A stretch of DNA of 38,696 nucleotides from Squatina squatina (lineage: Eukaryota): positions 9,245,060 through 9,283,755 of the forward strand of contig JARFOE010000162.1 in NCBI GenBank assembly GCA_031763465.1, given 5' to 3'. A model generated the notes under the pieces. That model saw only the letters and a program-made list of their open reading frames with translations. It made no database searches and was not told where the DNA came from. Numbering within the stretch: the first letter of the stretch is position 1; every line of letters starts with the position of its first letter. Made by a program: the position numbers and the translations under genes. Shown piece after piece: positions 24,789-38,674 of the stretch.

Positions 24789-24930
24789 GCGCTCCCCCAG
24801 TACTGCTCCTCTGACAGTGCGGCACTCCCTCAGCACTGCTTGGAATGTTAGCCTAGATGTTGTGCTAGAGTGGGACGTGATCCCACAACTTTCTGCTTCA
24901 GAGGCGAGAATGCTAGTGACAGAGCCATAG
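24789..24930 (-). mobile_element. DeuSINE/SacSINE1-like SINE 5' head fragment
   Basis: CTCTGACAGTGCGGCACTCCCTCAGCACTGC..GAGTGGGACGTGATCCCACAACTTTCTGCTTCAGAGGCGAGAATGCTA is the reverse complement of the family head. Confidence 0.7.
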
Positions 24931-25226
24931 CTAATGCTACACTGAAATGTCCTGCCACTGAGTCAAACTTAATAGCCCTGGTGAATCAAGCATCATTGCC
25001 TCCCCCTCTGGAGTGATGTGCGACGTTTCAGTTTCCTGCTTCAGCCAGAGAGTGAGCCCAAAGGCAGAACAGGCCCCGTGGTGAATCGACGATGTGTGTG
25101 CATACCCGACAATGACACTCGGCGTTTTGGAGTATGAGTGCAGCGGACTAGCGTGCCTCCGCACACAGACACATCCCCGCTCACTGGTTCCGATCAACCT
25201 CTAATTGCCGTTTTGCCTTTCCACAG

Positions 25227-25469
25227 CGGTGGCAGATGCCATCAAGTGCCAGCACGAGCGTGCCATCCACCTATTCATCGACTCCCTCGTCAACGGAAAC
25301 TACCCGAGCATGGCGTACCGCTGCTCCAACCAGGAGACTTTCGAGAAGGGCATGTGCCTCAGCTGCCGGAAGAACCGCTGCAACACACTCGGCTACGATG
25401 TCCGGAGGATCCGGAGCAGGAGGAGTGGCCGCATGTATCTGAAGACTGGGGCAGACATGCCCTTCCGAG
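25227..25469 (+). CDS. LPL/LIPG/LIPC-family triglyceride lipase, 243-nt exon 6 (catalytic His), copy A
   Basis: cag/gtaggc boundaries, phase 1/1. Encodes [55 protein letters not shown]; the length equals canonical LPL-family exon 6. Confidence 0.93.
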
Positions 25470-26461
25470 GTAGGCATCGAACCCAACGTCGCCCTCTCCA
25501 CCTGGCACATCATTAATACATAGACCAGGGCCAGAAATTAAACAGAAATAATCTGTGTTTATTATATGGAAACCCCAGCTCACATACTTCCAGCAAGGTC
25601 TCTCTCCATTGGCTGTTATTGGCTGTAAGCTGATGAGGTTTATATTGACAATATCATTTCATTATTCATTAAGGCTCAGTCCCCTCAGTTCCTGAAATTA
25701 GCACCTCCAAGGTTTATAATTCATAGGGGGTCCAATTGGAGAGCGCNNNNNNNNNNNNNNNNNNNNNNNNNNNNNNNNNNNNNNNNNNNNNNNNNNNNNN
25801 NNNNNNNNNNNNNNNNNNNNNNNNNNNNNNNNNNNNNNNNNNNNNNAATTTTAACCTGCTCTGCTGAGCAAGCGTCTGGGGTACCCGCCTCAGGCTGCTA
25901 GGGTCCTTCCTTAAATGTGCAGATCGGGCCCCGACCCCAATTTTAACTCTGCCCTGAGTGGGTAAACTGGGAGGACAGGAGCTGGGACCAGAAGAGGTAG
26001 AACAGACCAGTGTAGTTTACCTTCCTTGTAGCGAGGGTGACCAGATGTCCCAGTTTTGAGGAAATATCCCGGTGTCCCGACACTTACCTCAAAATTGATT
26101 AAATGTCCCTTTTTGTTGTGCCCACCTGGCAGAGAATGGACTGCGCAGTCCCAGGGAAGAACGGGCGGTGCATGCGCAGGCTGTTTGTCCTGGTTTGCCT
26201 CTGTTCAGATCTGGTCTCCCTACTTGTGGGGCTAGGACTGAGGTGCAGGTGAGCTGCTCCTGGTCCCGCAAGGAAAGTTAGGCTTCCCATAGCCCAGGCC
26301 CACCCCATTCCCTCCTGCGAGATCCTCTCAATACCCATTCCCTACGACTTCGGTCGGACCACTGACCTGGGAGACAAGATCACCCAGGCCACACGAGGAC
26401 ACTGAGTGCCCCCCCTCCCCCGCCCAGATCCTGCTCCCATTAGCCATCGGCCCCGGCCTAC

Positions 26462-26704
26462 CTCGGAAGGGCATGTCGGCCCTGGTCTTCAGGTACATCT
26501 TGGTGCTCCTCTTGCTGTGGACCCGGTTGGCGTTGTAACCCAACGTATTGCAGCGATTCTTGCGGCAGTTCAGACACATCCCTTTCTCGAAAGATCTGTG
26601 GTTGCTGCAACGATACGCCATGCATGGCTGATCCTTGTACAATAGGGAATCGATGAATAAGTGGATTGAACGTTCGTGCTCGCACTTCACAGCTTCCGAA
26701 AATG
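26462..26704 (-). CDS. LPL/LIPG/LIPC-family triglyceride lipase, 243-nt exon 6 (catalytic His), copy B
   Basis: cag/gtaggc boundaries, phase 1/1. Encodes [66 protein letters not shown]. Confidence 0.93.
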
Positions 26705-26917
26705 CTGCGGGAAGAGAAGAAGATGTTGAATAAATCCTGCTTACTTTGTGCTAGGCATCAACTCAGGTCCTGTGGTGTCGGTCACTCCTTTAAATGGTCT
26801 GGACCACCTGCTTTATTACAGACATTAACTCCTACTGCCCTCTGTCTGCTAGTGTGGTAGCAGGACAATGAAACTCCCTTGTGATCGGGACCAGATCTCC
26901 ATGTCTTCAGCATGTTA

Positions 26918-27154
26918 GGAACATAGAAACATAGAAAATAGGAGCAGGAGTAGGCCATTCGGCCCTTTGAGCCTGCACCGCCATTCGATATGATCATGGC
27001 TGATCATCCAAATTCCGTACCCTGTCCCTGCTTTCTCCCCATATCCCTTGATCCCTTTAGCAATAAGAACTATGTCTAACTCTTCTTGAATATATTTAAT
27101 GACTTGGCCTCAACAGCCTTCTGTGTCGAGAATTCCACAGGTTCATCACTCTCT
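26918..27154 (-). mobile_element. CR1-clade LINE 3' end (elasmobranch HER1-like tail)
   Basis: (GAAACATA)n microsatellite tail, GGAGCAGGAGTAGGCCATTCGGCCC, and RVMNLWNS..AVEAKSLNIFKK on the minus strand. Confidence 0.85.
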
Positions 27155-27254: not shown

Positions 27255-27629
27255 CCCTGGTGTGTCTGCAGGCTGGACAATTGACTGAATCTCTTCCCAC
27301 ACACAGAGCAGGCAAATGGTTTCTCCCCGGTGTGGCTACGTCGATGAGTTTCCAGCTCGGAAGGATAGCTAAACCCCTTCCCACAGTCCCCACATTTATA
27401 GCGTTGCTCCCCAGTGTGGTTTCGCTTGTGTCTCTCCAGATTGAATGACCGGCTGAAGGTTCGTCCACACACCAAACACATGTACGGTTTCTCCCCGCTG
27501 TAAATGATGCATTTACCTTCCATATTCAAAGGCTGATGTTCAGGTGCTGATGAATCGAGCGACTCTGGCAGATCTTGCCGTGAAGTTTGATTTGAGATTC
27601 CTGTCTGTAAATCCTCCATGTCTAATACT
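27255..27629 (-). CDS. C2H2 zinc-finger protein exon (3 fingers visible, truncated by gap)
   Basis: tttcacag acceptor. [38 protein letters not shown] with Kruppel-type linkers. Confidence 0.9.
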
Positions 27630-29429
27630 CTGTGAAACAGGTTGATAAAGATCATTACTTAGAGCACAGGACATAAATTCAGAACAAAGTTCAAGTTTCT
27701 CTGGAACATTCTTCCCTGCTGTGTCCCTCCGAAACTGTAAATCCCCCATTCCACACACTCTCCTGCCTCTCTGCATCTTCAGAGTTTGGATTAAGCACTC
27801 TTCCGTCCACAGGCTCATACTTTCGTCCCTTCCCTCCCTGAAGTGCTGACTCTGGCTGGGGGACAGCTCCAGAGACATGGGTTGCCCTGGAGACAAGTGA
27901 CTATTCTTCACGCATGAGCTGAGACAGTAACTAATGTCGGGATATTTGACTACAGGGGCCCGCAGTTTCCACACGAGCACTTTCCAGCCTATCACTATCA
28001 GGAGCAGGAGCTCTGGCTGATTTAGTGCAGCGACAAAGGCCAATTGTCCTGGACCCAACTGCAGTCCCCACCATAGAGCTGGACTGTCCTGGTCTGCAGT
28101 GAAAGGGTCTTAAAGGCAGCGAAGAACTAGAGAATATTTTAACAGAAATGTGTGCACTGAATTAAACAAAGCTGTGTAAAGATTCAGTTTAGGAATGAAA
28201 AGGGGATTACAGTGGCTCTTTAACAGCCAGGTAGTTTAGGAAGGCGCCAGTGCCATTGTTGAGAGAGCTGCTACTCACAGGAGCTGTTGCTGCAGGTAGC
28301 CCCTGCTCTGGTGCCCCGCCCCGNNNNNNNNNNNNNNNNNNNNNNNNNNNNNNNNNNNNNNNNNNNNNNNNNNNNNNNNNNNNNNNNNNNNNNNNNNNNN
28401 NNNNNNNNNNNNNNNNNNNNNNNTGCAGCTTTCATCACCAGGGGAGGAAACAAGTCATTGAAGAGATCTGTAACAGGACAGCGAGTATTAATCTGACAAA
28501 ATCATTGCATGCAGAGGAATCTCCAGCATTCCAGTCAGTGCCCTGCTCAGGGTGTGGGGGCAGTTCACACGTGCAGTATTCCCTGTCTGTGAACATCTCC
28601 TTGATCCTCCAGTATTCCCACTCCCCCTGGCGAGCAGGGATGGGAGAGCAGGATCCATCGGGTATAGCAGCCACATCGAACAACAAACACGTGTTTTGTA
28701 CAGGTCCAAGTGTGACTGGGTACTGCCTGTTCCTTCCCTCTCATTCTATAAATTCATGATGAACTTTCTTCCCCTATTCACGTTCGATCAGAGGGAGGGC
28801 CAGTGTGTCCTGATGGCTGATGTGTGCTCGCCCTGCCAGCGAGCCTCAATCACACAATCAAACTCCTGCACTGCGAGAGGCTGGGATCATTTCACTCTTT
28901 ATATCACAGCCACATGTTTATTTCCAGGGGCACAGTTAAAACTCCAGTCAGTGAAGAGTTACACAGCCAGGTAACCGCTGATGAACAGAAAAAGAACTCT
29001 GAAGGACGATGGGAACAGGAAGTGTCTCGGAATCCTTTGGTCTTTCCTCGGTTGGAAACTTCTTCCGCTCCCACACGATCTGGAGACAATGTCTGGTAGA
29101 AGCAGCGAGTTTGGATCTCTTTTAAGGCAATGGCCCTTTCTATTGTGGATGAGATGCTGGTATTTTCAGTAGCGCATTGTACGTCAGAGTTAACACTGAT
29201 CAGAGAAGACCTGGGCCCAAGCATTGTCCAATCTCTTCCACTCCAGTCAGTGCAAGCTGAGGATTCCATACTGATTCCAGATTCAAATCACACAAAGTCC
29301 GGAGTAATCAGGGAACTTGATACCAACCCCTAGAAACACAAACGCACACAAGTAGGCTGAGCCAGCTTCAGGATCGCCCAAAGAATTACTTTTTCCACCT
29401 CTTTGTTGACCATTTTTCCACAGGAATGA

Positions 29430-31532: not shown

Positions 31533-32086
31533 CAACGTCCGAGATGAGCTGAGACTCCAGGATGGACTGATATTCAGAGGAGAACGAGTTGTCATTCCAG
31601 CGTCACGGTGGAGAGAGATGAAAGAAACATTCCACACATCACATCTAGGAGTAGAAAGCTCTCTGAGACGAGCTTGAGAATGCCTCTACTGGCCTGGGAT
31701 GAACTCAGACATCAAGCACTATATCTCCACATGCTATGCATACAGGACGTATGAGCAGCAAAACCAGAAGGAGACGCTGATGCCCCATGATCTTCTTGAC
31801 CGACCGTGGGAAAAGATTGGAACAGACCTATTTGAGCTTGATGGTAAACATTACCTCATCACAGTGGACTACCTCTCAAACTTCTGGGAAATAGACAGAT
31901 TGTATGATAAAACCAGCAAGACTGTCATCAAGAAGCTGAAGAGTCACTTTGCACGGTATGGAATACCGAGAACAGTGATAAGTGACAATGGCGGACAATT
32001 TACATCAGAGGACTTCATCAAGTTTACAAATAAATGGGAGTTCAATCATCTCACCGTCTCTCCAAAACACAGCCAAATGAATGGGA
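31533..32086 (+). mobile_element. Ty3/Gypsy LTR retrotransposon integrase fragment (inactive)
   Basis: DGLIFRGERVVIP, HTSHLG, YWPGM, RPWEKIGTDLF, ITVDYLS and FARYGIPRTVISDNGGQF motifs. In-frame TGA at 31675; truncated after SPKHSQMNG. Confidence 0.92.
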
Positions 32087-32479
32087 ACACTGGTTCTCTA
32101 TCCGGAAATGGGGGGGTGGTTCTGGATCAGGCGGGGTCTAGGCCTGGCGATCAGTATCACCAGTTTCATGCTCAGGTGGAGAGTTAAATATCTAGTCCAG
32201 AGTCTCTATCGGTTTGGTCCGTATATTGTGGTGTATGTGCTCTCTGTAATGAGAAATTATTGCTATTAAATGCACCTTCAACACGTCTTTACCTGGTAAC
32301 CCCTGTGCATCGTGACATGGCTTTGCATCCCTCGCAGTCCATGATGGGGAAACACTTGCAAATGTGGGTGCATGAAGATGTCGGGCATCACCTGGCACAA
32401 TGAGAGAAAGGAAGAGCCATTGTATATTCCCCATGGTTTCACAGCCATACATCCAAACACACAAAACATTCAGCTCAAA

Positions 32480-33610: not shown

Positions 33611-34425
33611 CTGCCTCCCCCCCGGGCCCGCTTCGCTTCACACAAACAGCCCGACTCTCACCTCACTTCCGGAATCGCTGACACACACACACACAGGAGG
33701 CAAGAGGCGCCGCCGCCGCCGCCGCCGCGCTCTCGGAGGACGGGCCCGGTCCTCCCAGCCGCTCCCATTCACCGCCAGCGCTCGGGAAGCCCGCCGGTTT
33801 GGCGCTGTCGCTGGGAGCGGGGGAGGCCTGGTGCGGGAGCCGGGGCCCAGGAGTCGGTGCGCCGCCGCCGTCCCTCTGCCGCCACCGTACGGTTCCCGGC
33901 GGAAACGGTTGTCAAAGCGAAAGGGAGTGCGCCCTGCTTGTGACGCCCTTGATTGGCGGTGGCGCCCAACCAATCGGCTGCGAGCGGGAGGGCGTGACGG
34001 GTCGGGCGGACCAATGGGCGGCGGAGCGTGGCCGGCGCGGACCAATGAGCGGGCGGGAGGCGGTACTTCCTGCCGAGCGGGGCGCGGGAGGCGGGCGGAG
34101 CGGCCATGGCGAAGACCTACGACTATCTCTTCAAGCTGCTGCTGATCGGCGACAGCGGCGTCGGCAAGACCTGCGTCCTTTTCCGCTTCTCCGAGGATGC
34201 CTTCAACACCACCTTCATCTCCACCATCGGTACGGCCCGGGGCCGGGGCGTGCGGCTGGTTCCGGGGTGCTGGGCCCAGGCTGGGTGGGAGAGGAGCGCG
34301 GGCTCCGGGGGGGAAAGAGGCCCGGGGCTCGAGTCGTTGCACTGGCCGGGCGGCCGCTCACCGGGTCCCCCGCCTCCTGAGCGCCCTGCCTCCGGGAGTT
34401 GGGGTGCTGGTGATTATTCCCGGGG
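33611..34425. promoter_or_regulatory. CpG island promoter of RAB8A (probably bidirectional)
   Basis: Very GC- and CpG-rich. CCAAT at 33970, 34011 and 34042, reverse ATTGG at 33952, GC boxes, TGACG half-CRE at 33941 and 33995, ETS-like ACTTCC at about 33665 and 34066, and a (CCG)n tract. Confidence 0.85.
34106..34229 (+). CDS. RAB8A: Ras-related protein Rab-8, coding exon 1 (RAB8A most likely)
   Basis: Kozak GCCATGG. Encodes [41 protein letters not shown]; 124-nt coding exon with gtacgg donor; P-loop GDSGVGKT. Confidence 0.85.
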
Positions 34426-36969: not shown

Positions 36970-37280
36970 GTGAATACAGTAAGTATATCTCCATTTTACT
37001 TGCTGTACTTTCTGCTCCATAAACTTGCACTAACAAGGAAAGAATTGGGAAGCTGGGAATGCTGACATTTGCAAGTGTTGGAAATGCACATCAGCTGAAT
37101 GATTTGTGGGGACTGGAAGCTGCTGTAGGTCCATATTATAACAAGTTAACTTTTGGACTTAACTGAAGAGAACTTTTGTTCTTGCTTTGTGTACATAGCA
37201 CAAGCTGTTCATTAATAGTGTGCATTCATGATGCCATGTTTGGAGAATGCTAGTGTCCTCACATTGTTAAACTTTTCTAG

Positions 37281-37424: not shown

Positions 37425-38020
37425 NNNNNNNNNNNNNNNNNNNNNNNNNNNNNNNNNNNNNNNNNNNNNNNNNNNNNNNNNNNNNNNNNNNNNNNNNNNN
37501 NNNNNNNNNNNNNNNNNNNNNNNNNNNNNNNNNNNNNNNNNNNNNNNNNNNNNNNNNNNNNNNNNNNNNNNNNNNNNNNNNNNNNNNNNNNNNNNNNNNN
37601 NNNNNNNNNNNNNNNNNNNNNNNNNNNNNNNNNNNNNNNNNNNNNNNNNNNNNNNNNNNNNNNNNNNNNNNNNNNNNNNNNNNNNNNNNNNNNNNNNNNN
37701 NNNNNNNNNNNNNNNNNNNNNNNNNNNNNNNNNNNNNNNNNNNNNNNNNNNNNNNNNNNNNNNNNNNNNNNNNNNNNNNNNNNNNNNNNNNNNNNNNNNN
37801 NNNNNNNNNNNNNNNNNNNNNNNNNNNNNNNNNNNNNNNNNNNNNNNNNNNNNNNNNNNNNNNNNNNNNNNNNNNNNNNNNNNNNNNNNNNNNNNNNNNN
37901 NNNNNNNNNNNNNNNNNNNNNNNNNNNNNNNNNNNNNNNNNNNNNNNNNNNNNNNNNNNNNNNNNNNNNNNCTTACTGTTAGCATAATTTCAATTGACCA
38001 CTGAATCTCCAAATCTGCAG

Positions 38021-38167
38021 GCTTTTATAGAAATGAATACTGAAGAAGCTGCTAACACAATGGTGAGCTACTATAGTACAGTCACTCCCTATCTGAGGAG
38101 CCACCCTATCTACATCCAGTATTCGAACCACAAGGAGCTGAAAACTGACAACTCTCCTAATCAGGCC
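38021..38167 (+). CDS. PTBP1: PTBP1 147-nt exon (RRM1)
   Basis: Encodes [49 protein letters not shown]; [15 protein letters not shown] is PTBP1-diagnostic versus PTBP3 AFLEMASEEAAVTMV. Confidence 0.95.
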
Positions 38168-38674
38168 GTGAGTACTTTTTGTGCATCTAAAGATGTACCT
38201 GGATTATTACAAACTTGCATCAAGAGGCTCCATCTGTTAAATTCAGATGAAGTTTGGATTTGGGCTGGAGCTGATTTGATCCCTTTTCCAAGGCTATTGT
38301 TTTTTACTGGACATTAATAAGTAGTAGCAGCTCCAACATGAGAGCAGTGCATGGGTTTCAGGTATCTCAAGTGCCATTCTTTAGAGTTGAATGTAGAAGT
38401 GTTACGCCACTAGTGCTGCTTTTTGCTTTCCCCACAAACCTGTTTTTGCCTCTGCATCTCCTGCTCCCTGGGTAGGGTAGGGAGATGCATAGTATCAGAA
38501 CTCTCTGGAGGACAGGAGTTTGAGAGTGGAGTGACATCTGATCAGTTGGGAAGGTCCACTATCCTCCATGACTTGGATTTAGTGCGCACTGTGTATACCA
38601 AGTGAAGGATTGTACCCTGAGCAGCAATGTGCATGCTGTATTGTGGCTTGATTTCCTGTTTGATTCCTTTTCAG

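Follow-up and report, generated by a model that had tools for sequence, protein, structure and literature searches.

LPL is defined by ApoC-II-activated, heparin-releasable triglyceride hydrolysis. Two related genes have been named in fishes, LPL1 and LPL2, and in the elephant shark the two lie side by side (Paixao et al. 2025, PMC12111056). According to the same paper, they arose by a tandem duplication in the ancestor of the cartilaginous and bony fishes, and LPL2 was lost in tetrapods. Teleosts have adjacent genes of the orthologous clades, lpl1a and lpl2a, and rab8a is a listed neighbour of fish lpl1 (PMC12111056). Mammalian LPL uses GPIHBP1, a protein that chickens and other lower vertebrates, and non-mammals in general, are reported to lack; in the hearts of chicken and zebrafish, LPL is made by the capillary endothelium (PMC11529983).

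We describe here two lipase exons, copies A and B, found in a stretch of 38,696 nucleotides (the window) of a genome scaffold of the shark Squatina squatina. With a probability of about 0.9, the two copies are exons of shark LPL1 and of its published tandem paralog LPL2, both of which are predicted to be secreted lipoprotein-triglyceride lipases. The pair is already known, as LPL1 and LPL2, their presence in a chondrichthyan and the tetrapod loss of LPL2 have all been published (PMC12111056); what the window contributes is a further shark species. The closest described pair is that of Callorhinchus milii (XP_007899209.1 and XP_007899210.1; PMC12111056), with which the window pair has in common the exon, the assignment to two clades and probably the linkage, and a RAB8 gene lies nearby in the window scaffold. 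The C. milii pair differs in that it comes from another species, and the opposite strands of the window exons may be a further difference. The features of the window are collected in Table 1.

Table 1. Features of the window around the lipase exons (positions are those of the window)
Feature	Position	Strand	Details and evidence
EAPP, LBP/BPI/CETP-family exon, SYCP2	left part, 601-22296		Pfam scans
Contig with exon A, otherwise flanking intron only	24789..25746	+	window contig map, tblastn
Copy A, internal coding exon of the probable shark LPL (LPL1)	25227..25469	+	243 nt, AG/GT, open; end of lid, catalytic His, Cys-rich and basic clusters
Scaffold gap of 100 N between the contigs of A and B, true size not fixed	25747..25846	.	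N run
Contig with exon B, otherwise flanking intron only	25847..27154	-	window contig map, tblastn
Copy B, same exon of the predicted shark LPL2	26462..26704	-	243 nt, AG/GT, open; extra Cys at exon residue 27
Codon of the extra Cys (QPC) of copy B	26622-26624	-	
C2H2 zinc-finger array fragment, directly after the LPL2 contig	27257-27658	-	Pfam scan
Retrotransposon-type integrase fragment	31678-32184	+	Pfam rve, Integrase_H2C2
First coding exon of a RAB8 gene (RAB8 A and B paralogs not told apart)	34106..34230, end approximate	+	best PDB matches Rab-8A, E 4e-22
Two PTBP1-like exons, downstream of the lipase pair	37023-37163, 38015-38170		

Two lipase exons on separate contigs

Each copy is flanked by AG and GT and contains no stop codon, and we take it to be the counterpart of exon 6 of the human LPL gene. 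The copies are identical at 55 of 80 residues and at 173 of 243 nucleotides. Both match the Pfam Lipase family (PF00151) with an E value of 1e-23 and 84 bits against a cut-off of 27. Both can also be aligned without gaps to the solved chains of mammalian LPL (PDB 6oau, 6e7k and 6u7m). In this alignment, the His of the C-x-H-E-R motif coincides with His241 of the chain, five cysteines of each exon fall on positions 239, 264, 275, 278 and 283, and the basic clusters of the copies are matched with those of the mammalian enzyme. The motifs CRKNRC, RxxSxRS, AYRCS..FEKG, MAY, CNTLGY and A-x-MPFR are each found in A and in B. Statements about the intactness of the two genes in this animal extend to one exon each of LPL and LPL2. 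The motifs of the catalytic Ser (GYSLG) and Asp (GLDP), whose exons lie outside the window, are present in the five shark orthologs that were inspected. Orthologs from sharks, rays and chimaera combine these motifs with a 22-residue lid and ten cysteines.

The two copies differ at 11 of 18 four-fold sites. When their contigs are compared with each other, a single inverted match of 259 nt with 72% identity is found, which comprises the exon and about ten further bases and ends at the splice sites. Because the four-fold sites have diverged to this extent and the similarity is confined to the exon, A and B are old paralogs and not alleles. An allele pair or a recent duplication is ruled out, as the comparison of the contigs gave the exon match only, with no shared repeat or intron.

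The window is made up of 38 contigs with a median length of 828 nt and contains 37 runs of N, 32 of which are exactly 100 nt long. Neighbouring contigs carry isolated exons from unrelated genes. Such a pattern is what would be expected of a short-read scaffold that has been ordered along a reference. Neither a tblastn search of the 38 contigs with six full-length shark lipases nor a search of the window with the two exons themselves turned up another lipase exon. The room between exons A and B is 992 nt, the gap included. Convergent genes would have to fit both of their 3' halves into these 992 nt, and no other lipase exon is present there; the spacing of about 1 kb is therefore not real, but is the product of a gappy scaffold that holds one small contig per gene.

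These results agree with several points of the initial annotation, which had described two intact 243-nt exons on opposite strands with 55 of 80 residues identical (confirmed by our recount), had called them paralogs rather than alleles, and had seen the catalytic His, the cysteine pattern and the basic clusters preserved in both. It had also spoken of a convergent pair. The opposite strands are indeed present in the scaffold; the 1-kb unit is not upheld, as the exons sit in separate contigs across a gap of 100 N with no 3' exons between them, and convergence is unproven.

Probable assignment of the copies to LPL1 and LPL2

Among the matches listed, copy A is closest to an 'LPL-like' protein of the sawshark Pristiophorus japonicus (P0003; 79/80 residues, 98-99%), followed at 85-92% by proteins of catshark, rays, skate, white shark, bamboo shark and elephant shark. 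Copy B is closest to a second 'LPL-like' protein of P. japonicus (P0018/P0019; 76/80 residues, 95%); the next matches listed are another group of chondrichthyan proteins, with coelacanth behind them. Over the exon, the elephant-shark protein P0007 is the same as the XP_007899209.1 (LPL) rows in the supplement of PMC12111056, and it is identical to A at 70/80 residues and to B at 58/80. The elephant-shark protein P0064 corresponds in the same manner to the XP_007899210.1 (LPL2) rows of that supplement, with 69/80 residues identical to B and 53/80 to A, and its six N-glycan sequons are those given for LPL2 in Table 2 of PMC12111056.

Phylogenetic trees were calculated from hand-picked proteins of named source only (61, 26 and 39 rows out of 287 stored), the rows being without lamprey, hagfish or shark LIPG. 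In the 61-row tree, for which a mixture model was used, shark A is grouped with the LPL of bony vertebrates (99/94) and shark B with LPL2 (97/95), and the LPL and LPL2 groups stand together, apart from LIPG and LIPC, at 100/95. The same three groupings are found in the 26-row tree (97/92, 91/93 and 83/73, respectively) and in the 39-row tree (99/94, 98/97 and 96/92). The latter includes fish LIPG as well as both window exons, each of which nests in its own shark clade. The LPL2 clade that shark B joins contains coelacanth, lungfish, bichir, paddlefish, bowfin and teleosts. Trees calculated with LG+G4 carried a long-branch warning on the LIPC and LIPG rows. The orthologs of copy A have a lid of 22 residues in 8/8 cases, and each of ten Cys columns is occupied in 7-8 of the 8.

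Copy B is thus found inside the LPL2 clade and copy A is grouped with LPL in the trees, so that the initial annotation, in which neither copy was a clean ortholog, is not followed here. Judged from the sequences, the identification of copy A as the ortholog of LPL (LPL1) is moderately secure. The proposed duplicated, possibly unnamed vascular lipase lineage is retained as a pair of paralogous vascular lipases and loses the adjective 'unnamed', as the pair has been published as LPL1 and LPL2 (PMC12111056).

The signal that joins A to LPL is modest because shark LPL is without the many changes that accumulated on the long stem of bony LPL. This stem amounts to 0.34-0.43 changes per column, and its substitutions are absent from shark LPL. 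Over the exon, A is 62% identical to bony LPL1, 61% to bony LPL2 and 65% to shark B. In the full alignment, two columns unite A with bony LPL, in one column A, B and LPL2 stand together against an LPL that resembles the outgroup, and in ten columns A, B, LPL2 and the outgroup agree against bony LPL. The mixture of LPL-, LIPC- and LIPG-like residues that had been pointed out is present in full, but it is not diagnostic, as the motifs are spread over the groups. MAY is found in 13/23 LPL1 of bony vertebrates and 5/8 LIPC; CNTLGY in 8/8 LIPC, 6/23 bony LPL1 and 2/7 bony LPL2; and A-x-MPFR in 7/7 bony LPL2 and 2/6 LIPG. On the evidence of the alignment, the 'mosaic' residues of A and B are retained ancestral states.

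It could be argued that copy A represents a third lineage, namely a sister of LPL2 that was kept only in cartilaginous fish, and that true LPL was lost in sharks. The small number of columns uniting A with LPL would fit such a history, as would the A-x-MPFR motif common to A and LPL2 and the CSHER motif of bony LPL, which occurs in no chondrichthyan among 17 A/B rows. A tree in which A, B and LPL2 are joined is the one alternative not firmly rejected: its AU p value is 0.078 under LG+G4, which is no rejection, and 0.035 under the mixture model, a marginal rejection. All four trees, however, favour the union of A with bony LPL. Furthermore, the residues that A shares with LPL2 match the outgroups in ten columns versus one, which marks them as ancestral. 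Two reciprocal losses would also be required, and A is LPL1 in the published phylogeny as well (PMC12111056). Such a third lineage is very unlikely, and copy A is treated below as LPL1.

LIPG and LIPC belong to the same family, have the same exon and share some ancestral residues with the two copies, but they form separate clades (100/100). The case that the initial annotation had itself set against its reading is that the copies are an LIPG and either an LIPC or an LPL, brought together from unlinked loci when the scaffolder stacked them on one reference exon. The fragmented scaffold with its gap of 100 N would be in keeping with stacking, the CEHER motif is common to B and LIPG (6/6), and no shark LIPG is found among the matches listed. 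AU tests nevertheless reject every such placement: B with LIPG (p 0.012 and 0.006), A with LIPG (p 0.017), A with LIPC (p 0.008) and B with LIPC (p 0.011). All 17/17 shark A/B proteins have a 22-residue lid, like LPL (including that of mammals) and most LIPC, versus 19 residues in the four parsable LIPG rows out of six. Distinct LIPC proteins are present in sharks (P0106, P0116 and P0151), the records that carry the orthologs of A and B have equal listed lengths in 7/7 species, and stacking on a single reference exon should have placed both contigs on the same strand. An origin of the pair by stacking of LIPG and LIPC or LPL is highly improbable.

A duplication restricted to chondrichthyans, with A and B as an unnamed mosaic lineage, is hardly credible: MPFR and CNTLGY are common to both and over the exon A is slightly nearer to shark B than to the bony groups, but the monophyly of A and B is rejected by AU tests (p 0.0004 and 0.0008; LG+G4 on 61 rows and mixture model on 26 rows), the full alignment has 0 columns in which A and B stand together against the two bony groups, and the four-fold sites bear no trace of recent conversion.

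Linkage, orientation and neighbouring genes

Within the scaffold, the LPL1 and LPL2 exons adjoin each other across the gap. In 7/7 chondrichthyans with data, the orthologs of A and B are carried, among the matches listed, by chromosomes or scaffolds of equal listed length (gene coordinates were not used); Pristiophorus, the eighth species with both genes, has no listed length. The paddlefish proteins P0035 and P0140 have equal listed record lengths too, and the lengths for whale shark LPL2 and LIPC differ. The equal record lengths argue indirectly against unlinked loci, and LPL1 and LPL2 are probably true chromosomal neighbours in sharks.

Two fused teleost models (P0001 and P0002) consist of an LPL1-type half followed by an LPL2-type half. 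This order implies that the two genes are on the same strand in teleosts, whereas they are opposed in the window. The arrangement of LPL (+) and LPL2 (-) in the window may represent either an inversion between lineages or a scaffolding error. PTBP1 and similar neighbouring genes that extend over several contigs keep a consistent strand in the scaffold, and the opposed order of A and B may therefore reflect the reference genome.

The window contains 376 stop-free stretches with a length of 45 aa or more, and Pfam scans of 147 and 30 of them yielded context only (EAPP, the LBP/BPI/CETP exon, SYCP2, the C2H2 zinc finger, the integrase and a Ras-family exon). The LBP/BPI/CETP exon is presumably part of PLTP, and further exons in the left part of the window are taken to be PCIF1-like. 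We assume that EAPP, PLTP, PCIF1 and SYCP2 belong to other linkage groups than RAB8A and PTBP1, so that there may be a break in synteny within the scaffold ahead of the lipase pair. The placement of the C2H2 fragment may be driven by repeats. The position of RAB8 and PTBP1 downstream of the lipase pair fits the published location of rab8a near fish lpl1.

Predicted function and chondrichthyan features of the pair

By combining the trees with the published account (PMC12111056), it is possible to outline a likely history of the pair. One duplication before the split of cartilaginous and bony fishes would have produced LPL1 and LPL2, and LPL2 would have disappeared later, in tetrapods. From the established biology of LPL, both proteins would be secreted alpha/beta-hydrolases. 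As in other members of the family, they may use a Ser-Asp-His triad to hydrolyse the triglyceride of VLDL and chylomicrons at the capillary wall, and the basic clusters encoded by the exon of A and B would anchor the enzyme to heparan sulfate. The 22-residue lid of LPL2 leans towards a triglyceride substrate, without deciding the matter. By analogy with chicken and zebrafish, synthesis may take place in the capillary endothelium without GPIHBP1. A comparison of the GPIHBP1 interface is likely moot for the shark copies, as non-mammals are reported to lack GPIHBP1 (PMC11529983). Enzymological or activity data on shark LPL or LPL2 were not found in the literature searched, the scope of which did not include subscription papers and bioRxiv supplements. 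As shark LPL has kept ancestral residues that are changed in bony LPL, it is a good reference for the specialisation of LPL.

The extra cysteine of copy B is found in 9/9 chondrichthyan LPL2 proteins and in 0/52 other lipase rows, and bony LPL2 has it in 0/7. It is located at the position of Ser286 in full-length primate LPL. The alignment of 9 chondrichthyan B rows and 52 other rows contains no second B-specific cysteine that might serve as a partner, and the residue is possibly a free thiol. The accessible part of PMC12111056, in which ten cysteines are counted, does not mention it.

The protein searches revealed no chondrichthyan LIPG among the named rows in the best 120 of 295, 745 and 1269 matches. 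With axolotl LIPG as the query (best 120 of 1269 matches), 13 rows were without a name, and LIPG of teleosts and sturgeon was among the matches. This result is no more than suggestive of an absence of LIPG in sharks. It might be speculated that cartilaginous fish break down blood lipids with another set of enzymes: that they have no LIPG, that LPL2 with its free Cys took over the phospholipase role, and that copy A might belong to a third lineage and not be true LPL; we consider this combination quite unlikely, and retain A and B as LPL1 and LPL2. The chondrichthyan-specific cysteine of LPL2 and the question of shark LIPG are small leads that can be tested.

A further observation concerns a protein of Discoglossus pictus annotated as 'endothelial lipase' (P0121, 1030 aa). 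Its length is about twice the normal one and it scores like the fused models with two domains; it is possibly a fused model of two lipase genes.
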